A stretch of 64,000 nt of DNA from assembly GCA_963711835.1 (NCBI GenBank), contig CAVQFQ010000021.1:224001-288000 (forward strand), read 5' to 3'. Of this stretch, positions 23,296-34,598 are shown in pieces. Position numbers and translations under genes: made by a program. The stretch is from an uncultured delta proteobacterium. GTDB taxonomy: Bacteria; Desulfobacterota; RBG-13-43-22. The notes beneath the pieces were generated by a model. The model saw nothing but the letters and a program-made list of their open reading frames with translations, had not been told where the DNA came from and did no database searches. How positions within the stretch are numbered: the first letter of the stretch is position 1; the number at the start of each line of letters is the position of its first letter.

Positions 23296-24009
23296 GTGCT
23301 GAGAGGAATTTGCCGGAGGGACTCGGCTTGGTTAAAAAAAATGGGTTCTTTGGCCCTGATCGTGTGCCTCTTTTTAGGCTTGTTTTCCTGCCGGCCGGCC
23401 CTTCCGCCGGTCACGGTCGCCCTGCCCGGCCCAGCCTCTCCACCCCCTCCTTCCGAGCAGTTCCCTTCATCCAGTGAGATCGCCAAAACCGCCAAGACAG
23501 CGGAAGACCTGCCCGAACCGGTCTTGATGCCCCATCCTTCCGAGTTGATTCCGACCCTACCGCCCTGTCCCCCTCCCCTGCCGCAAGGAGACTGGGGCAT
23601 CATCGTTAAAAAACAGAAGCGGAAATTGGAACTTTATCAGCGTTGTCAACTGCTGAAAGTCTTTCCCATTGACCTGGGTGAAAACCCCAAAGGTCCCAAA
23701 CTCTTTCAAGGGGATATGAGGACTCCGGAAGGCTTATACCAAGTCATCGAAAAAAAGGATTGGGGGCAGACCAAATACTATCTGGCCTTCCTATTGGACT
23801 ATCCCAACAAACTGGATCGAGCCCGATACGACCAGGCCCTGCTCAAGGGCACCATTCCCAAGGAAACCGGCATCGGGGGGCTGATCGAAATTCATGGGGA
23901 GGGCAAAGGCCTGGATTGGACCCAGGGGTGCATCGCCTTGCACAACCCGCATATGCAGGAATTATTCGCCTCCATCCCGGTGGGAACCCCGGTCTGGATC
24001 GAACCTTGA
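23296..24009 (+). CDS. L,D-transpeptidase (YkuD) family lipoprotein
   Basis: Lipobox LFSC, Pro-rich linker, GDMRTPEGLY, IEIHG...WTQGCIAL. Confidence 0.88.
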   Translation: MLRGICRRDSAWLKKMGSLALIVCLFLGLFSCRPALPPVTVALPGPASPPPPSEQFPSSSEIAKTAKTAEDLPEPVLMPHPSELIPTLPPCPPPLPQGDWGIIVKKQKRKLELYQRCQLLKVFPIDLGENPKGPKLFQGDMRTPEGLYQVIEKKDWGQTKYYLAFLLDYPNKLDRARYDQALLKGTIPKETGIGGLIEIHGEGKGLDWTQGCIALHNPHMQELFASIPVGTPVWIEP

Positions 24010-24031
24010 TGATTTCAACCCGGGAAGAACC

Positions 24032-24304
24032 ATGATGGCAACACTAAAAAAATGGGGGAATAGCCAGGGATTGCGGTTTTCTAAATCCCTGCTTGAAAAG
24101 GCAAAGATGGGTGTCGGCGACCAGGTGGAGGTCATCGCCGAAGAAGGTCAGATTATTGTTAAAACCCCGCATCAAATCAGGGGAAAATATAGAATCCGGG
24201 ATCTGGTAGCTCGGATGCCCAAGCATTATAAACCAAAGGAAATTTCCTTTCGATCCGCAATGGAAAAGACCTCGATCTCCTTACTGGAGTCCTTAACCAG
24301 ATAG
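24032..24304 (+). pseudogene. AbrB/MazE antitoxin with truncated, chimeric C-terminus and no cognate toxin
   Basis: LKKWGNSQGLRF; after KPKEI the frame runs into the antisense strand of relE. Confidence 0.7.
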
Positions 24305-24487
24305 AGTATCCGGTAATTGCCAACCCTAATTCTGGCGCCTTCCCCGGCCATGAAGCCTTTTGACGTTGCGGAGATAGGGGTTCTTTTTTAAGGCAAGAAT
24401 GGTTTTTATGATTTTGTCATGGATTCTTGGGGGAAGATCATCTAATTCTTTTTCTGCCGATCTTTTTAGGTTGACCGTATATGGCAT
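24227..24487 (-). pseudogene. RelE/ParE toxin, frameshifted
   Basis: MPYTVNLKRSAEKELDDLP...NVKRLHGR, an extra G in a GGGG run (~24342-24345), then EGARIRVGNYRILY...ADRKEI in the shifted frame; TAATG coupling to the antitoxin. Confidence 0.8.
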
Positions 24488-24711
24488 TATCTGCCCTTTT
24501 TCTTCCGGACTGATAGATAGTCGTCTAAGCTTCGGGAGGGTTCCTTGCGACGTTGCTCGATAATAACGGTATCGATCAAGTCTTCAAGAAATTCCTTGTC
24601 GCTCAGCATTTTATCAACGACAGCCTCTCTGGTCTTCTTTGGCAAAGCCCGAAAAGCTGTCAAGAAGACCTCGGACGTTGCCTCTATGGTAGTCATGGCA
24701 AGCACCTCCAT
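24487..24711 (-). CDS. Putative antitoxin of the RelE module
   Basis: Small protein (EDLIDTVIIEQRRKEPSRSLDDYL) coupled to relE; true start probably the second Met. Confidence 0.72.
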   Translation of the reverse strand: MEVLAMTTIEATSEVFLTAFRALPKKTREAVVDKMLSDKEFLEDLIDTVIIEQRRKEPSRSLDDYLSVRKKKGR

Positions 24712-24884
24712 TTCCTTTTTTTATTATAACAAATGGTCAAACGATATCAACCATCGAATACGCAGTCCCTTTTTACAGAGTGCCACCGCCGGAGGCCGGG
24801 TTCTTTTCAACTGGCGGTATCTCCCCCCGGTTGAAAAATATTTCATCTCTGCGTCTTTCGCTTCTCCGCGGTAAATACTGTATT

Positions 24885-25131
24885 TGGCCGGCCGGCCGGG
24901 ATTATTCCGGGATTCCTCCCGTCCTGCGATCCAGACCTTGAAAGTCCGGGGATCGGCCTCTTCGATCTGGTCGATCAGCCAGTCCTTGACTTCCAGGACC
25001 AGCAGGCCCTGCTGTTTGCCGAAAAGAACGAAGTCGGGCTCCTTGCCCTGTTCCCCGATGGTTGGCTCATACCAGCCGATAAAGTCGTTATCCGGCCGGG
25101 CCGCTTCCCGGAGGAACCGAAATACTTTCCG
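24885..25131 (-). pseudogene. NERD-domain nuclease fragment A
   Basis: RKVFRFLREAARPDNDFIGWYEP...EPDFVLF...GLLVLEVKDW (PD-(D/E)xK); truncated at both ends. Confidence 0.75.
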
Positions 25132-25303
25132 ACCCATCGTTCAGGACTTAATAAGCCTGCCCCGGCTGGTAATCAGCCTGGGGGATCCAGCTCTTAAAGC
25201 TGTCCCATCCACATTATATCCACCTTTTAAAGGCCAGCCCCTTCTCCATAGGAACATGGTTTTCTGTCCAGGGTCTTTGCCTATTCTTTTCCAAATAAAT
25301 TTC

Positions 25304-25334
25304 TTGACAACAAAAATAATAAAGTTATACTTTT
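25304..25334 (+). promoter_or_regulatory. vapBC promoter with palindromic operator
   Basis: TTGACA-16-TATACT, overlapped by aaagt-tat-acttt. Confidence 0.6.
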
Positions 25335-25354
25335 CATAATAAAGGAGAACTTTT

Positions 25355-25606
25355 ATGGCCCTGGCACAAATCTCCCCCAAAGGTCAAATTTTACTCCCCA
25401 AGAGGATTCGAAATAAATACGGAGTGCGGCCTGGGGGAAAAGTCCATCTTCTGGAACAAGCCGACGGCATTCTTATCAAGCCGGCCCCCCAGGATCCTGT
25501 AGAGACCGCCTGCGGGTTTCTTAAAGGCGATTTTCCCCTGACCAAAGATCTTCTCAAGGAACACCTCAAAGAACGGCGCCATGGAACAACCCGTCATCCT
25601 CGATAG
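25355..25606 (+). CDS. AbrB-type antitoxin (VapB)
   Basis: AQISPKGQILLPKRIRNKYGVRPG; overlaps the PIN toxin gene. Confidence 0.88.
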   Translation: MALAQISPKGQILLPKRIRNKYGVRPGGKVHLLEQADGILIKPAPQDPVETACGFLKGDFPLTKDLLKEHLKERRHGTTRHPR

Positions 25607-25997
25607 TTTTGCGTTAATCAGCCTGTTTCACCGGGAACCCGGCTGGGAAACAGTCCATTCCATTCTAAAAGACCTAGCCCAAAAAAAGAAGAAGGCCGTT
25701 CTATGCCGGATTAACTGGGGCGAATTCTACTACATTGTAAAAAGGCGCGTCGGCCAGACCAAAACACTGGAGGCCCTGGCATTGATCGAACAATTGCCCA
25801 TAGACATTCTTTCGGTGGACGATCCGCTGATCAGCGAAGCGGCAGAAATCAAGGCCGATTATCCCATCGCCTATGCAGATGCCTTTTGTGTGGCTACGGC
25901 CAAGAGAATGGATGGCCTGATAGTGACCAGCGATCCTGAATTTAAGGCTGTGGAAAAATTGATTCCGGTACGATGGATAACCGGCCGGAAAAAATAA
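25581..25997 (+). CDS. vapC: PIN-domain toxin
   Basis: VILDSFAL, INWGEFYY, IAYADAFCVATA, IVTSDPEF. Confidence 0.9.
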   Translation: MEQPVILDSFALISLFHREPGWETVHSILKDLAQKKKKAVLCRINWGEFYYIVKRRVGQTKTLEALALIEQLPIDILSVDDPLISEAAEIKADYPIAYADAFCVATAKRMDGLIVTSDPEFKAVEKLIPVRWITGRKK

Positions 25998-26039
25998 TCC
26001 GATTTTTTCCACACCAAGAAATCCTCTTTTTGATAACGT

Positions 26040-26140
26040 AAGACCTTCCGTTCGCCCTCGGTGGCGCTTGCCAGGCCTTCGATATCCTCGGGGTGCATGC
26101 GGGCCATGTCAATTTTATTCCACGAATTCAAGAACGTCCC
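26040..26140 (-). pseudogene. NERD gene 5' fragment B
   Basis: MARMHPEDIEGLASATEGERKV from ATG 26107; near-identical to 27381-27481. Confidence 0.75.
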
Positions 26141-26160
26141 GGACTTTGAAATAATCCTAC

Positions 26161-26212
26161 TTGATTTTTTCCACCACATAGTGTAAATTTTAACCATGAA
26201 GGTGGTGGAAAA
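26161..26212. promoter_or_regulatory. Bipartite palindromic site overlapping a leaderless promoter
   Basis: TTTTCCACCAC(26167-26177)-N24-GTGGTGGAAAA(26202-26212); TTGATT-17-TAAATT with ATG 26196 just downstream. Confidence 0.7.
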
Positions 26213-26528
26213 GGATAGGTTAGTCGACGGCATGCTTCAGGAAGAACTGAAGCGGTGCCACGATATGGTCTCTTCCCTGGAACAGGAAATCGTCCGCCTG
26301 CCTAAAGGGTCTCTCCACGTTCGGAAAAAACAATATAAAAAAAAGCGATACCGATATTTTTATTTGAAATACCGGGAAGGAGAGAAAAGCGTCAGCCGTC
26401 ATGTTCCTGCGCCTCAACTGGAAGCTTTAAAAAAAGAATTGGACAAACGGAGGGATATCGGAAAGGAAATCAAAGCCTATCAAGACCGGATTAAGTACCT
26501 GGAGAAAGTCCTTGGATTAAAGGCTTAA
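26196..26528 (+). CDS. Basic coiled-coil protein, putative DNA-binding partner of the nucleotidyltransferase
   Basis: LPKGSLHVRK...YFYLKYREGEKSVSRHV flanked by coiled coils. Confidence 0.7.
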   Translation: MKVVEKDRLVDGMLQEELKRCHDMVSSLEQEIVRLPKGSLHVRKKQYKKKRYRYFYLKYREGEKSVSRHVPAPQLEALKKELDKRRDIGKEIKAYQDRIKYLEKVLGLKA

Positions 26529-26534
26529 GCAATC

Positions 26535-27221
26535 ATGGAAGTAGCCCTTAAAAATAAAACCGTTATTCCTAAAAATGTGGCGGACATTCTTCGCTCCCTC
26601 TCCTTGGCCGATTTCTTTTCTCAGGGGTTGCTGGTCGGGAGCTGGGTGATGCTGCTCTACAAGGAAATTTTCAGGATCCGTTATACACTGAGGACCTTCG
26701 ATATAGATTTTGCCCTGGAAACCATCACTCCGGTATCCGGAAATTTTGTGGATCTCGAAAAGACACTCACCGACCTGGGTTATCTGGTGGTTACCGACTA
26801 CCATACGGGTTTACGGAAGTTCACCAGGGAGGGTTTGGAGGTCGAATTCCTGATTCACCGTAAAGGCGGCCGGGACGTCCCAAAGATAGAAGTTAAGCAC
26901 CTGAACGTCAGCGCCCTTCCGCTCCCGCATGTCGACATCCTGTTCTTATTTCCGATAATCGTTGATTTCGGAGATTATAAAATCCGCATCCCTTCTCCGG
27001 AAGCCCTATTTCTCCACAAATTGATTATTGCCCAGAAAAGAAAAAGTGAGGCCAAGAAAGAAAACGACCTTGCCCAGTGCAAAATTTTATCAGTCGCCCT
27101 TAATTCCGAAAAACTACGACAAATTTTTATAACTTTAAAATTCAGCATGAAGACCCGTGGTTTGATAGCTACCTCCTGTAGGGCCATCAATTTTCCACCA
27201 CATTTTCTTGATTTCAAATAG
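26535..27221 (+). CDS. GSU2403-like nucleotidyltransferase-fold protein
   Basis: LLVGSW, LRTFDIDF (GS...DxD), VEFL, PSPEALFLHKLIIAQKR. Confidence 0.78.
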   Translation: MEVALKNKTVIPKNVADILRSLSLADFFSQGLLVGSWVMLLYKEIFRIRYTLRTFDIDFALETITPVSGNFVDLEKTLTDLGYLVVTDYHTGLRKFTREGLEVEFLIHRKGGRDVPKIEVKHLNVSALPLPHVDILFLFPIIVDFGDYKIRIPSPEALFLHKLIIAQKRKSEAKKENDLAQCKILSVALNSEKLRQIFITLKFSMKTRGLIATSCRAINFPPHFLDFK

Positions 27222-27237
27222 TATGTGGTGGAAAAAA
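27191..27237. repeat. Second bipartite palindromic site
   Basis: TTTTCCACCAC(27191-27201)-N23-GTGGTGGAAAA(27225-27235). Confidence 0.75.
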
Positions 27238-27320
27238 ACCTTCTGAACTTGGGCTTCACCCCCCTTCGAACTTTTCACCTTTTAGGACTTACCTTTGAGG
27301 GTCCGACCTCAAATCACAAC

Positions 27321-27481
27321 GTTGGTTCATACCAACCGATAAAATCCGAGTCCGGCCGGGCCGCTTCCCGGAGGAAACGAAAGACCTTCCGTTCGCCCTC
27401 GGTGGGGCTTTCCAGGCCTTCGATATCCTCGGGGTGCATGCGGGCCATGTCAATTTAATTCCACGAATTCAAGAACGTCCC
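27321..27481 (-). pseudogene. NERD gene 5' fragment C
   Basis: MARMHPEDIEGLESPTEGERKVFRFLREAARPDSDFIGWYEPT from ATG 27448; homologous to both A and B. Confidence 0.75.
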
Positions 27482-27549
27482 AGTCTCCATGCTAATTTTT
27501 TCTGCACTCTCGGAACGAACGTCCCCTATTCCAGGGAAGGGCTAAGGGA

Positions 27550-27873
27550 TCAGGAAAAGATTTTTCTCGGGAGAGTTTTTATCTCCAATATTTCTGTTGT
27601 TTTCAATTTCCCCAACTTTCTCAATATAAACCGTTTTTCTATGGTGGCTTGTTTGCTCAACCTTATAGTCGAGGCAGCAAGTAATCCACCTTTTTCCCAA
27701 TTAGATATTTTATAATCCGTTTCGGAGCTATAGTCCTGAGTCGTTACCCTGGCAACAAGAACGTCCTGATCCCCTGAATCATATAAAACGAACGCCGGTC
27801 TTCTGGTTATTCCTTCCAAATCCGAATGAGGGAATCCGATAAAAACGATATCTCCAAAATCATAGGTCATCAT
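27550..27873 (-). CDS. PemK/MazF family toxin
   Basis: GDIVFIGFPHSD...RRPAFVL...VARVTT...GGLLAASTIR. Confidence 0.88.
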   Translation of the reverse strand: MMTYDFGDIVFIGFPHSDLEGITRRPAFVLYDSGDQDVLVARVTTQDYSSETDYKISNWEKGGLLAASTIRLSKQATIEKRFILRKLGKLKTTEILEIKTLPRKIFS

Positions 27874-28063
27874 AGATGGCGTCCTTTTCGGTATACCCCC
27901 TTAAAAACTCGGACATCACAAAATTATTCCAATCTGATTCTTCATCTCCGATTAAAAGCGTTACTTTCACTTTGGTCTTTTGACGTAATTTTTCTTTTAG
28001 CTTTTCCGGGACAGAAAGATGCCCATCGGCTAAAACTTCGGCCACATATTCATAAGTTTCCAT
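27860..28063 (-). CDS. Putative antitoxin of the PemK module
   Basis: Overlaps the toxin start; acidic tail FLRGYTEKDAIYDDL; GGAGG RBS. Confidence 0.75.
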   Translation of the reverse strand: METYEYVAEVLADGHLSVPEKLKEKLRQKTKVKVTLLIGDEESDWNNFVMSEFLRGYTEKDAIYDDL

Positions 28064-28236
28064 TTTAACCTCCATTCTCGCCATTGGCATGTCGAGATGG
28101 CAAATTGATCGGGACGTTTTTTTATTTTATTCCTGTCATTCACTCCTGTCAACCCGCGGTTCCCGACTATCCGGCCGGTGGCAGGATCGGCGTCCCTGTC
28201 TGGCCTCGATCCCGATTTAGATATAGCTACCTCCCC

Positions 28237-28566
28237 AGTTAAATGACCCCCGGCAAAGCCGGGGGCTTATCTTTGTTAGCCCCCCAAGGGGGCCGTTTCA
28301 TGAGTCCCATGAAGGGGACATACTTCATATTCAGACTTGGGAAGGTGGAGACGCCCATCTTTCTTTGTTTGTTCAGGAGTATATTTCTTAACGATTTTTA
28401 TTCCTGACCAATGGGCATTTCCAGAATATTTAAACTCTTAAAAGATTTTTGGTTTAATCTCCGAGTGCAAAATTCAGCGATTTATATTGGTGGTTTTTAC
28501 TATTCTATTGCCTCACACGGTCAAACCTTTCGGAGTCCCCCGGCAAAGCCGGGGGTTTACCTGTTA
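28237..28566 (-). mobile_element. Internally deleted IS200/IS605-family remnant
   Basis: Identical subterminal hairpins cccccggc-aaa-gccggggg at 28247-28265 and 28537-28555; degenerate Y1 TnpA tail IGQE*KIVKKYTPEQTKKD. Confidence 0.72.
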
Positions 28567-28570
28567 GAAA

Positions 28571-28705
28571 TTATGGAAGTCGTTGGCAAAGGCGCATAGG
28601 GATGATCCGCTGCGTAGGCTGTCCGCTGGCATCAAGCTCCCAGTGACGTGCTGGGTATTCGTAGGGGGAGTTTAGGATCGGCTTTTCGAAGACACGGTTT
28701 TCCAT
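28571..28705 (-). pseudogene. N-terminal fragment of a type III restriction Res-like helicase (BPTD_3080-like)
   Basis: MENRVFEKPILNSPYEYPARHWELDASGQPTQRII, ending next to the IS200 remnant. Confidence 0.7.
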
Positions 28706-28761
28706 TTTTATGTTCTCACCGATAGTCTATTTTATTAATTGCCTTGGCAAAAACCTATAAT

Positions 28762-28941
28762 GGGACCCGTTGGTGCAGGAGTTGCTTCTTTCAGCTACCA
28801 TTTCCGGCCTCAACAAAAACTCCAGGTCCCTGAATCATTTCCTGCCATATTTAGCCCGGGGCTCCCTGGCCAGAAAGCCGATTTTCTTTCTGGGCTGCTC
28901 CGGCGGCGTCATAAGCTGCCGGATGGCCTCAAAGACCACCC
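28762..28941 (-). repeat. 180-bp direct repeat copy 1 (ORF6N-gene 3' end plus downstream DNA)
   Basis: Collinear with 29714-29893; encodes VVFEAIRQLMTPPEQPRKKIGF...YGRK*. Confidence 0.85.
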
Positions 28942-29043
28942 TCAAAACAGTATTCAGGAGTCAGGAGCCAGAAGAGGATTGAAACTCCTTTTTTACTTCC
29001 CCTTCACAATTGCAATATCAAATCCGCCGGGCAAACCGGAACG

Positions 29044-29400
29044 CTATGCATTTTCGGACCGCAATCGCGCCCTGATCTCTGAGAGCTTCTGTTTAAAGGC
29101 CGGTATATCCCTAATGAGTATTTCCCAGATCATTTCGACATCAATATCAAAGTAATCATGGACAATCCGGTGTCTCAAACCGATGATTTTGTGCCACTGA
29201 ATTGCAATATGATGATCTCGAAATTCTTTCGGCAATTGATTGGCTGCTTCCCCCAGGATCTCAAAATTTCGCACCACCGAATCAATCGTTTTCTCGTCCT
29301 GAATAAACCTCTCCCGATCAAAACCGGCAGTATAACGTTCAACTTTTTCGACCGCCTCCCAAAGGTCTTCGATTAACAGATCAACCGATCTATGTGACAT
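29044..29400 (-). CDS. HEPN/DUF86 ribonuclease toxin (HepT-like)
   Basis: DSVVRNFEILGEAA; GLRHRIVHDYF (Rx4H). Confidence 0.9.
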   Translation of the reverse strand: MSHRSVDLLIEDLWEAVEKVERYTAGFDRERFIQDEKTIDSVVRNFEILGEAANQLPKEFRDHHIAIQWHKIIGLRHRIVHDYFDIDVEMIWEILIRDIPAFKQKLSEIRARLRSENA

Positions 29401-29683
29401 CGATCAAATCCTCCTGGATAATGGTCCAATACCTTGCCTTGATAGCGCGACTGGAAACGACATCCGTCGGTACTCCCAGGGCAGTCTCAATTTCTTCGGC
29501 CAAGTCCACAAATCGGAGTCCAATGGCCGGATCCACCTCCACAAGAATATCCACATCGCTGTCTTTCGCATAATCCCCCCGGGCATATGAGCCAAAGAGC
29601 GCCAGCCGGGAAATGCCAAAACGGTTGGTCAAGTCAGGTTTATGCTCCTGTAGAATTTTTAGAATTTCTTCCCTGGTTTTCAT
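29390..29683 (-). CDS. Minimal nucleotidyltransferase antitoxin (MntA-like)
   Basis: LFGSYARGD...SDVDILVE (GSx10DxD). Confidence 0.9.
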   Translation of the reverse strand: MKTREEILKILQEHKPDLTNRFGISRLALFGSYARGDYAKDSDVDILVEVDPAIGLRFVDLAEEIETALGVPTDVVSSRAIKARYWTIIQEDLIDVT

Positions 29684-29713
29684 AAATAGATCTCCTCATT
29701 AAAGGATTTAGTG

Positions 29714-29893
29714 GGGACCCGTTGGTGCAGAGATTGCTCCTTTTAGCTAACATTACCGACACCAAAAAAAACTCCAGGTCCTTGAATCATTTCCTGCCGT
29801 ATCTGGCCCTGGGCTCTCCGGCCAGAAAGCCTATTTTCTTTCTAGGCCTTTCCAGGGGCTTCATGAGCTGCCGGATGGCCTCAAAGACCACCC
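29714..29893 (-). repeat. 180-bp direct repeat copy 2
   Basis: Collinear with 28762-28941. Confidence 0.85.
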
Positions 29894-30120
29894 GGAACTG
29901 CTCATCATATTTCTCTTCAAGGGCGGCCAGCTTACGGGCCAGATCCTTGTGGGCAGGCAACCGTTGCCCTTAATCTAACAAAAACCCGCATGATCTGGAT
30001 ATTTACCTCAATCGCCCGGTCGCTATTCAGAATCCCGGAAAGCATGGCAACCCCCTGCTCGGTGAAGGCAAGAACATTTGGAGCATGCTTTATTTTTGAA
30101 CATATCACAATTTGTGATAT
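29787..30120 (-). pseudogene. ORF6N-domain protein, 5'-truncated and frameshifted
   Basis: SQIVI...[34 protein letters not shown], frameshift, then [30 protein letters not shown]. Confidence 0.8.
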
Positions 30121-30392
30121 GTTCCGGAATCTCTTCCCAGGGGCGTGGTCCCGGTTGGCCTGGTAGTAAAGGACAAGGCCGGACGCCTGGAGTATAAGCT
30201 TCAGGATGCCGAAAATAAAAAGACCCTGCTCTTCAAGTAGAAGGCAGGGTCTATAAGTTTCATTCATCCTCCGGGTTTAAGGTTAGATGATAAAAGAAAG
30301 GTAAATTTAATAGGATAGGCTTCAAATAGCATGTATTAAGAACGTTGTCAATTTATGGAAACAGGACCTTATTCTGCCCCGGTTAAATGAAT

Positions 30393-30581
30393 TTAACATT
30401 GAGGACGGCCCTCTCCTCTGACCTCGGTGATTTCCACCAGGGCCTGGTTAAGGGCTTCCTCCAGGGTAAGGAAGTCCGGCTCCCCGGTTTCAGGGGCAAG
30501 AAGCGGGAAGAGGGTCAGGTTTTTATGGGACTGGGGGTGGGCGACCTTGACCAGGTCGAGAAAGGTTTTGATGGTTTCCAT
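30393..30581 (-). pseudogene. N-terminal fragment resembling the DUF6569/ARPP-1 family
   Basis: HKNLTLFPLL...FLTLEEAL...VEITEV then an early stop; GAGGAGG RBS. Confidence 0.55.
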
Positions 30582-30802
30582 GGGTTATTCCTCCTCATTT
30601 TTCGATTTTAAGGAGGAGCCTAACACCCGGCATTGTCAGATCAGGACAAATGGAGGATTATTTTTTTTGCGTGTAATACCAGTTCGGATCCAGGTACCTT
30701 CCCAGCTTCTCCTTGAGTTCTGAGGGAAACTCTTCAACCTTCTCAGTCAATAAGGTGTTCGTTTCCTCGTCTGTCAAGGGGACCTTGTCGAGAAACTTGG
30801 GC

Positions 30803-30883
30803 TTGACTATAGAATTTAAAGTGGTTAGATTATTACTTAAAAATCCCCCCATCTCAGTGAGAAATAGAGATGCTGGGGGTTTT
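30803..30883 (+). promoter_or_regulatory. sigma70-type promoter followed by a 5'UTR stem-loop
   Basis: TTGACT-17-TAGATT (30803-30831); aaaatccccccatctc...gagatgctgggggtttt. Confidence 0.6.
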
Positions 30884-30898: not shown

Positions 30899-31117
30899 AT
30901 GCCAATATATGAATATCGCTGTCAGGACTGTGACCAGATCTTCGAAAAGATTATCTGGAATACCGATAAGGAGACTGTTTGTTGTCCAAGTTGTAAAGGA
31001 GATAAGGTCCTGCGGCTTCTCTCGGCTTTTTCTTCGGGCAGTCCTCGGGGAGGCCAGGGAGTTTCCCTTCCTTCTACCTGCGGACCTTCGTCGTCAGGAT
31101 TTTCGTGAGCCTCTTAA
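30899..31117 (+). CDS. FmdB-family zinc-ribbon protein, candidate C-terminal selenocysteine (ends at 31108 if UGA is a stop)
   Basis: MPIYEYRCQDC...CPSC...LSAF; tail CGPSSSGFS-TGA-AS-TAA with a downstream hairpin. Confidence 0.85.
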
Positions 31118-31154
31118 TTGGAAATGAGAACCGTGGGTTCTTAAGGAAGGAATA

Positions 31155-31304
31155 ATGAAAACCATTTTCTGGCTGTTCATCATCGTAGCGGTCTGGTTTG
31201 CTTTGAATCGCTGGGTCTTTCCGAAATTCGGAATTCAGAGCTGACTCTCCCCCACCTCCTGCCAGGTTCCCGGGCAGGAAAAAGACAAGGGCAAGAAACT
31301 ATAA
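31155..31304 (+). CDS. Small membrane protein with in-frame UGA, candidate selenoprotein (absent from the ORF track)
   Basis: AAGGAAGGA RBS; MKTIFWLFIIVAVWFALNRWVFPKFGIQS-TGA-LSPTSCQVPGQEKDKGKKL*; hairpin 31257-31279. Confidence 0.62.
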
Positions 31305-33736: not shown

Positions 33737-34598
33737 TTAAAACCCGCGGGCTAAAAAAACCTGGCCCCAGCCTCTGTTGTTCAAAGCCCGGAAGGCCTTC
33801 CGGGCTTCTGCCTCATCCTCCCAGATCCCGAACAGGGTCGAGCCGCTGCCGCTCATCAGGGCTTGCCGGCAACCCTGCCGGAGTAAGGCCTTTTTTATTT
33901 CTTTCAGTATAGGGAAGGCCGGCAGGACGAATTTTTCCAAATCATTCCGGAATCGCCCGGCCTCTGGAATTTTCTCTTTTCCATTTAAACGGTTTACATT
34001 AGTTAATTTTTTAATCTTTGTCAATGGGATTTTTACCTGACTATAGGCCCAGGCTGTAGAGACCGGGAAACCCGGATAGACCAGTACATACCACCATTTT
34101 GGAAAATCGGTCCAGGGTTCCAGAATTTCCCCCCGGCCCTGCCCCAGGGCCGTTTTTTTCAGTAAAAAAAATGGGATATCGGAACCTAAGCGGGTGCCTA
34201 TCTCCATCAACCGAGTTTGTCGAGATTCTGTTTCCCAACAGATCGTTGACCTTTAACAGGATGGCGGCCGCATCACTGCTGCCTCCGCCCAATCCCGCCC
34301 CGAGAGGGATTTTCTTTTTTAACTCGACTTCAAGAGGCAAAGGCCGGTCCAGCTCTTTTTCCAGGAGCCTGAGGGCCTTAGTCATCAGATTAGCCTCTCC
34401 TGCCAGTTCCGGGTATTCAGGACACCGGACAAAGGGACCTTTAGGGTTTTTTCGAAGAATTAGGGTGTCAAAAAGCCTGATCCTTTGCATCAGGGTTTGG
34501 ATTTCGTGATAGCCATCCTCCCGTTTTGCGATTAGGGTCAGGATCAAATTGACCTTGGCCGGGGCCAGGAGTTTTATCCCTTTTTCTGGAATATCCAT
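33737..34598 (-). pseudogene. ispE: 4-diphosphocytidyl-2-C-methyl-D-erythritol kinase, split by a +1 frameshift near 34215-34222
   Basis: APAKVNL and KKIPLGAGLGGGSSDAAA in one frame; LGSDIPFF, NDLE and LMSGSGST in another. Confidence 0.88.

Follow-up and report, generated by a model that had tools for sequence, protein, structure and literature searches.

A membrane gene with an in-frame TGA and an upstream FmdB-family gene with a second one: two predicted selenoprotein genes of an uncultured delta proteobacterium

The window analysed here, a stretch of 64,000 nucleotides from an uncultured delta proteobacterium (contig CAVQFQ010000021.1 of assembly GCA_963711835.1), contains a short gene that very likely encodes a membrane-anchored selenoprotein of 49 residues, and an upstream FmdB-family gene, which very likely carries a second, C-terminal selenocysteine (Sec) (Table 1). 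The reading frame of the membrane gene is interrupted by a TGA, which is followed by a cysteine codon and a hairpin; the source genome possesses all four sel genes; the TGA is invariant among the homologs extracted from the phylum, and the alternation between Sec and Cys forms tracks the Sec trait. Judged from the sequence and its homologs, the membrane gene is genuine, and its product is very likely a selenoprotein that adds a new member to a family so far predicted but not named. As a whole explanation, we favor, with a probability of roughly 55%, a membrane-tethered, thioredoxin-recycled redox or persulfide relay, which would act together with the upstream Sec-ending zinc ribbon. The initial annotation, which was made from the sequence alone, had proposed a hidden membrane-anchored redox selenoprotein at this site; the proposal is supported here, although the family had already been predicted computationally and the U-x5-C spacing described for it is the minority form. 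The annotation overlooked the second Sec that the FmdB gene very likely hides.

Table 1. Features of the FmdB gene and the membrane gene (positions within the window)
Feature	Position	Strand	Basis
Best sigma-70-like promoter match, TTGACT-17-TAGATT	30803..30831	+	Upstream of both genes; consensus match only
FmdB-family zinc-ribbon gene (TIGR02605), predicted 72 aa, ending ...GFS-U-A-S	30899..31117	+	Family scan, linked copies
TGA, predicted C-terminal Sec codon of FmdB	31106..31108	+	47/47 short linked FmdB genes
Predicted FmdB SECIS, loop CGUGG, 23 nt past UGA, -8.1 kcal/mol	31125..31143	+	SECIS-model scan
Purine-rich ribosome-binding site AAGGAAGGA of the membrane gene	31143..31151	+	Sequence; directly 3' of the FmdB SECIS hairpin
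49-codon membrane gene, 49-aa predicted Sec protein	31155..31304	+	Sequence, conserved homologs, published printed sequences, AF2 model
In-frame TGA, predicted Sec codon (Sec30)	31242..31244	+	TGA in 142/142 extracted phylum loci; Cys homologs
Predicted bacterial SECIS of the membrane gene, 7-bp stem, 9-nt loop AGGUUCCCG	31257..31279	+	SECIS-model scan, covariation
Conserved Cys codon TGC (Cys36), partner of Sec30	31260..31262	+	Cys at +5/+6 in 231/249 TGA genes

The start codon of the membrane gene, ATG 31155, lies directly after AAGGAAGGAATA (31143-31154), and purine-rich stretches are also found ahead of the starts of close homologs. The N-terminal helix is hydrophobic, with a 19-residue Kyte-Doolittle maximum of 1.99, and the AF2 model contains helix 2-24 alone, followed by a low-confidence tail (pTM 0.37). 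Beyond the TGA, the frame continues as LSPTSCQVPGQEKDKGKKL and closes at TAA 31302-31304, which gives a U-x5-C spacing; the residue before U is Ser instead of Thr, and the Cys36 codon sits within the 5' arm of the predicted SECIS. The ribosome-binding site, the single transmembrane helix and all coordinates of the initial annotation are in agreement with this anatomy, as is its expectation that gene callers shorten the product to 29 amino acids: exactly this product is present in the public protein collection (P0002), where it was the sole match of a word-indexed homolog search. The TAA overlaps the end of pth, which is convergent, within its final two codons (31299-31304), including the last sense codon, and no terminator was found between the two genes. 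The window neighbors of the FmdB and membrane gene pair are pth and a mobile-element-like stretch. At 23900-30850, next to the FmdB promoter, a run of small genes resembles toxin-antitoxin and nucleotidyltransferase/HEPN pairs (labels given by eye); with short gene remnants at 30393-30581 and 30658-30852, it has the look of an island that is mobile or in decay. On the minus strand at 33737-34598, a gene which, from its sequence, we take to be ispE-like is split into two frames, 34041-34598 and 33737-34210, with a shift near 34200-34230; since the gene is an essential one, the split probably arose during assembly.

In the hairpin downstream of the TGA, the stem TCCTGCC (31257-31263) pairs with GGCAGGA (31273-31279) and encloses the 9-nt loop AGGTTCCCG, with a folding energy of -14.5 kcal/mol. 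The loop begins 19 nt past the UGA and has a G at position 2, all as described in the initial annotation, and a terminator-like site is absent here on both strands; with no U-tract, a role of the hairpin as a terminator was rejected. Hairpins located 16-37 nt after the UGA were scanned with our own implementation of the constraints given in section 5 of PMC13188914, not with bSECISearch, and the hairpin of the window passes. Compared with the consensus bacterial SECIS model (bSECISearch) as that section describes it, it has nothing unusual, and decoding would follow the standard bacterial route. Taken by itself, the hairpin is not beyond chance, with z between -2.2 and +0.1 depending on the segment used, and 21% of synonymous-codon randomizations of the gene likewise pass the model; the significance of the SECIS therefore rests on the family-wide test. 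After removal of five of 120 metagenome pattern loci by a filter, the model was passed by 206 of 250 distinct TGA genes (82%, against 22% expected from synonymous randomization) and by 35 of 111 Cys genes (32%, against 28% expected). Among 17 close homologs, 12 have C-G and five have U-A at stem pair 3, with no mismatch and with both sides at third codon positions where the change is synonymous; pair 6 is disrupted in three of the 17 and pair 7 in one. Given established bacterial Sec decoding, SelB would almost certainly bind this hairpin and insert Sec at codon 30.

The membrane protein matches 177 of the 401 genomes of the phylum, and a 27-member profile matches 184 (46%), with TGA in all 150 among the matches listed. 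As the initial annotation had anticipated for a selenoprotein gene, homologs keep TGA or Cys at this codon, together with a conserved Cys downstream. In the extracted phylum loci, the Sec codon is TGA in 142 of 142 and TAA or TAG in none, a count for which L048 was left out as a spurious match and the register of L044, L072, L074 and L115 was set by hand (in L044 and L072, the TGA comes one codon further on). Across 249 TGA genes, comprising the phylum loci and those of a named-genome set, four positions hardly vary: W/Y at -16, P at -7, G at -4 and T at -1. The downstream Cys is at +5 in 191 of these genes, which makes U-x4-C the usual spacing, at +6 in 40 (U-x5-C), later in three and absent in 15. 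The named-genome set was obtained with a pattern that allowed TGA or TGY and required ATG next, and comprises at least 120 loci, of which 110 have TGA and 10 Cys. Furthermore, 1,424 matches were found among 1.84 billion protein representatives; in the best 150 of these, the Sec site is occupied by Cys in 109 (three assigned by eye), by Trp in 25 and by another residue in seven, and nine end there. The Trp forms appear to be code-4 miscalls of TGA, and TGA forms are under-counted in the representative library because they are shortened there. The record titles of the named-genome loci listed include Planctomycetota, Acidobacteriota, Deltaproteobacteria, Myxococcales, Obscuribacterales, Akkermansiaceae, Spirochaetes, Gemmatimonadetes, Rokubacteria, Zixibacteria and Chloroflexota. 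Records of Obscuribacterales/Melainabacteria (L162, L176, L190, L207, L257, L263) and Akkermansiaceae (L159, L198) have the TGA form together with selA or selB; to our knowledge, neither group is a typical user of Sec.

No Pfam or NCBIfam model came near its cut-off for the membrane protein or 27 Sec-form members, an NCBIfam scan of 62 Cys-form members likewise gave nothing near cut-off, and a PDB profile search with the membrane family yielded E values of 0.25 or worse. The protein also differs from the thioredoxin-fold UxxC/CxxU class, in that it consists of one helix and coil, has a spacing of four to five residues and shows no family match. In bacterial lipoproteins, the lipobox directly follows the hydrophobic region and has a small residue at -1. 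An assignment as a lipoprotein was rejected, since T occupies -1 in 92% of the TGA genes and Pro and Lys/Arg stand between the helix and U; a RiPP precursor was rejected as well, because modifying enzymes are not recurrent near family loci.

The source genome encodes selA, selB and selD above the curated cut-offs, the last with a TGA of its own, and one tRNA-Sec (selC), which completes the machinery that the initial annotation had named as a prerequisite. Besides SelD, the membrane gene and FmdB, other credible Sec genes are FdhA, found twice, and MvhD, found once; the output of the genome-wide motif scan for further selenoproteins was mostly noise. In its gene content, the genome resembles that of an anaerobic deltaproteobacterium. 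TGA is a common stop codon in this genome and ends 629 of 1,843 long frames, and the sole UCA tRNA detected at default stringency is tRNA-Sec; a genome-wide reassignment of TGA was rejected on these grounds. The frequent use of TGA as a stop would also fit an ordinary termination codon, in which case the product would be a membrane peptide of 29 residues, and what follows, both frame and hairpin, would be due to chance or to a separate peptide reinitiated at TGA-ATG. Such a reading could draw on the hairpin, which by itself is not significant, and on the Met that comes next after the TGA in 81% of TGA genes, a share to which one gene set selected for ATG contributes. It is nevertheless extremely improbable: no extracted phylum locus has TAA or TAG here, Cys homologs continue past this site and share the Met and the Cys that follow it, the codon after the TGA of the window is CTC and no start codon, enrichment of the SECIS is confined to TGA genes, and the TGA form tracks selA and selB.

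This last association was seen in 90 named genomes tested of the at least 120 loci, in which selA is present in 75 of 80 with the TGA form and in two of 10 with the Cys form (Fisher p 6.7e-7, a value overstated by kinship because related genomes are not independent). Four of the five selA-negative TGA-form genomes have selB, whereas selB is absent in four of four tested selA-negative Cys-form genomes. The TGA-form genome G409 (Isosphaeraceae, L232), in which selA, selB and tRNA-Sec were not found and for which no assembly completeness is given, speaks for an ordinary stop; its assembly may be incomplete, or the gene may be a relic that outlived the Sec trait. Within the phylum, selA is found in 371 of 401 genomes, and the membrane gene occurs in eight of 20 selA-negative genomes among those listed. 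Both selB and tRNA-Sec were detected in five of five examined gene-carrying phylum genomes without a selA match, namely four of the eight listed and G314; the examination left out G008, G087 and G121 (61-79% complete) and G360. The genomes G007, G027, G143 and G172 have neither selA nor selB, nor the membrane gene. In G139, a second tRNA-Sec-like match (C19:91158-91246, 52.9 bits) adjoins a second selB-like gene (C19:91285-92403).

The upstream gene matches TIGR02605 with 58.5 bits (cut-off 31.3), has all four ribbon Cys intact and ends in GFS-TGA-GCC-TCT-TAA, with the TAA at 31115-31117. Gene callers would stop at the TGA; with read-through, Sec would be the third-last residue of a tail of the form C-G-x(n)-F-S-U-A-S, and the predicted SECIS lies 3' of the predicted true stop. 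An FmdB gene is located near the membrane gene in 48 of the 142 phylum loci, as a short form in 47 and as a long paralog in one; the short forms all end with a TGA, one to two further codons and a second stop (47/47), whereas the long paralog ends with TAA. The SECIS model is passed by 32 of 46 FmdB tails compared to 18% for shuffles. Among the controls, the four other FmdB paralogs of the source genome end with TAA or TAG, and a C-terminal Sec tail was found in none of 29 FmdB genes (30 loci in 16 selA-negative genomes), though 17 of them end with TGA. The linkage is mostly limited to the phylum, with two of 70 TGA loci of the broad set and none of 57 Cys loci. The membrane gene and the FmdB gene are likely co-expressed. 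RNA-library contigs of close relatives span 30925-31267 and 31066-31230; since such contigs reveal neither strand nor transcription, they were excluded as evidence. In L061 (3226-3414, plus strand) and nine related loci from several lineages, an unannotated Cys-rich protein of about 60-70 amino acids with the motif C-x-K-F...C-x-x-P-x-x-Y-C-x-x-R-x-x-C is encoded between the membrane gene and FmdB; ten of ten copies end with TGA, and no Pfam or NCBIfam match was obtained for it.

A published FmdB selenoprotein, described as a 'putative regulatory protein' in the relevant passage of the GOS study of 2008 (PMC2398784), is likewise a TIGR02605 zinc ribbon with a predicted Sec and a bacterial SECIS. 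However, its Sec lies within the first CxxC of the ribbon, as UxxU or CxxU, whereas the TGA of the FmdB gene in the window is C-terminal and its SECIS lies beyond the true stop. In the consulted sections of PMC13188914, FmdB is given solely as UxxU, and our literature search returned no report of a C-terminal FmdB Sec, although an earlier name in print is possible.

Two tiny tandem Sec genes, of which the first gains only three residues by read-through and has a SECIS that abuts the next ribosome-binding site, could mainly serve as a selenium gauge or sink, in which read-through ties expression to the selenium supply or the proteins store selenium. We regard this as very unlikely: a Cys form with the same motif is kept in genomes without the Sec trait, which argues that the chemistry of the residue matters, and the FmdB gene, upstream in 31 of the 47 linked loci, is downstream in the other 16.

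The side C-terminal to the helix is more positively charged in 94% of the 249 TGA genes and in 120 of 120 Cys genes, which, according to the positive-inside rule, points to an N-out/C-in orientation. The protein would probably expose a flexible U-x4/5-C loop just beneath the inner membrane. The eukaryotic proteins SELENOK and SELENOS are built in a similar way, with a single membrane helix at the N-terminus and with Sec in a disordered tail that reaches into the cytosol. They serve as a working analogy only, with no homology claimed, and, in contrast to their Sec near the C-terminus, the Sec of the membrane family stands about six residues past the end of its predicted helix, with its partner Cys at +5 or +6.

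Neighbors were scored within 1.5 kb, for families that were picked after the data had been viewed and at loci that are not independent by kinship; in this scoring, the 139 phylum loci have FmdB in 46, ArsR in 16, thioredoxin-like genes in 16 and CcdA in nine, the 70 TGA loci of the broad set have rhodanese/YgaP in 10, ArsR in eight and thioredoxin in five, and the 57 Cys loci have rhodanese/YgaP in 34, ECF sigma/zf-HC2 anti-sigma genes in 27, thioredoxin in 13 and TauE in six; the background, taken from 1,288 tiles of the source genome only, amounts to 0-9 for each family. No scored neighbor is present within 1.5 kb in 73 of the 139 phylum loci and 49 of the 70 broad TGA loci. In the window itself, FmdB is the only scored neighbor, and no thioredoxin, rhodanese or ArsR gene lies beside the pair. 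OsmC, MsrA, CoA-disulfide-reductase-like and type III SQR-like genes occur once or twice each, and the ArsR neighbors match BigR only below its cut-off. In addition, four in-frame fusions to thioredoxin were found (P0152-P0154 and L248), each a singleton, of which P0153 and P0154 look frameshifted. The 636-nt locus L248, from the candidate division CSSED10-310, combines the TGA form with the thioredoxin domain and lacks the second Cys. In a recurrent Planctomycetota cluster (L152-L154, L165, L205 and Cys-form metagenome loci), thioredoxin, an ECF sigma factor with a zf-HC2 anti-sigma factor, the membrane gene and a YgaP-like gene are joined by a gene in which a cytochrome bd-I-like part is fused to cytochrome c, and by one for a membrane protein of some 385 amino acids that carries no annotation.

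It is on account of these neighbors and fusions that we favor a role as a relay. The single helix would tether the Sec-x5-Cys pair on the cytoplasmic side, where Sec30 could attack a disulfide, a peroxide or a sulfane-sulfur donor such as a rhodanese persulfide. The resulting adduct would then be resolved by Cys36 to a selenenylsulfide, which cytoplasmic thioredoxin would reset. Zinc-thiolate partners, that is the Sec-containing FmdB here and the zf-HC2 anti-sigma factor in many Cys loci, might constitute the sensing side of the module together with ArsR-family repressors, and the module would act in the context of thiol and sulfane-sulfur stress.

The same ArsR/SmtB neighbors (16/139 and 8/70 loci) could instead point to binding or sensing of soft metals or metalloids (Cu, Hg, Zn or As) by the Sec/Cys pair, which would feed ArsR-controlled efflux from its place at the membrane, with the FmdB tail as a second metal site. 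RND efflux adaptor genes in eight of 80 named long-flank loci, NikR in six of 142 and the Cys-rich tails of other FmdB paralogs, which are typical of metal binders, are consistent with this idea. We consider it unlikely, as the commonest partners of the Cys loci are rhodanese/YgaP, ECF/anti-sigma and thioredoxin genes rather than metal transporters, and two ligands in a flexible loop would make a poor site unless the protein is oligomeric. A further proposal is that of a small accessory or anchoring subunit without turnover of its own, which is joined to another membrane protein by an intermolecular Se-S or S-S bond. Conservation of the helix face and of the motif W-x-x-P-K/R-x-G-V/I-x-T exceeds the need of a plain anchor, and the next gene downstream in Cys loci is often one for a YgaP-like membrane protein or one that is cytochrome bd-I-like; however, no membrane partner gene is common to the lineages, and a second Cys at fixed spacing would better suit an intramolecular resolving role, so that this proposal appears decidedly unlikely.

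The family of the membrane protein has been encountered before. The relevant part of the GOS study (PMC2398784) lists a family 'Unknown', with 15 sequences and 0 Cys homologs, among previously described families, and the 'G. lovleyi hypothetical' of the consulted deep-Sep material is its counterpart, with six entries among the deep-Sep test genomes. The match was made by eye, by comparing the printed sequences with the homolog alignment: the printed sequences share an N-terminal helix, the motif W-(I/V)-L-P-(K/R)-x-G-(V/I)-x-T-U-(M/L)-x3/4-C and a charged tail, and the membrane protein has the N-terminal helix, W-x-x-P-(K/R)-x-G-(V/I)-x-x-U and a Cys at +5/+6 that define the family, likewise by eye. 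It deviates from the published sequences in the rarer U-x5-C spacing and in Ser for Thr before U, and, unlike in the GOS data, Cys forms are abundant here. The GOS and deep-Sep passages on the family neither name it nor describe a domain, a motif, its topology, its genomic context or a function. None of the rows of the whole Table 1 of PMC13188914 (a review of 2026) matches the membrane family, no match by name and motif was seen in the consulted parts of a 2022 review and deep-Sep file 3, and the portions consulted of PMC9312934, PMC5029168, PMC1794560, PMC1976440, PMC4807772, PMC11227280 and PMC13326102 contain nothing on it. Our literature search returned no work on the function of the family, for which an earlier name in print is possible.

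Since the recoding follows the ordinary mechanism and the family had been predicted earlier, the system does not represent a new kind. What the analysis adds are the many Cys homologs, the broad spread, the enrichment of thioredoxin, rhodanese/YgaP, ArsR and zinc anti-sigma neighbors and the predicted Sec of FmdB. With 184 of 401 sampled phylum genomes and about ten other phyla, the family is widespread yet without a Pfam or NCBIfam model, and databases carry it as 29-aa stubs or with Trp at the Sec site. More tentatively, the two genes might form an undescribed two-selenoprotein redox-sensing unit, in which FmdB, as a soluble zinc ribbon with a mobile Sec tail, exchanges electrons or sulfane sulfur with the membrane-tethered U-x4/5-C peptide; this peptide may then rank among the most widespread unannotated bacterial selenoproteins, with the thioredoxin/rhodanese/zinc-anti-sigma module of Planctomycetota as its Cys-based equivalent. 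The C-terminal Sec of FmdB would be a new Sec position in a known family and would alter the annotation of many zinc-ribbon genes. Both the membrane protein and FmdB are small enough for direct synthesis and assay, and the Cys homologs and the gene neighborhood offer a testable function for a family that has been called 'Unknown' since 2008.
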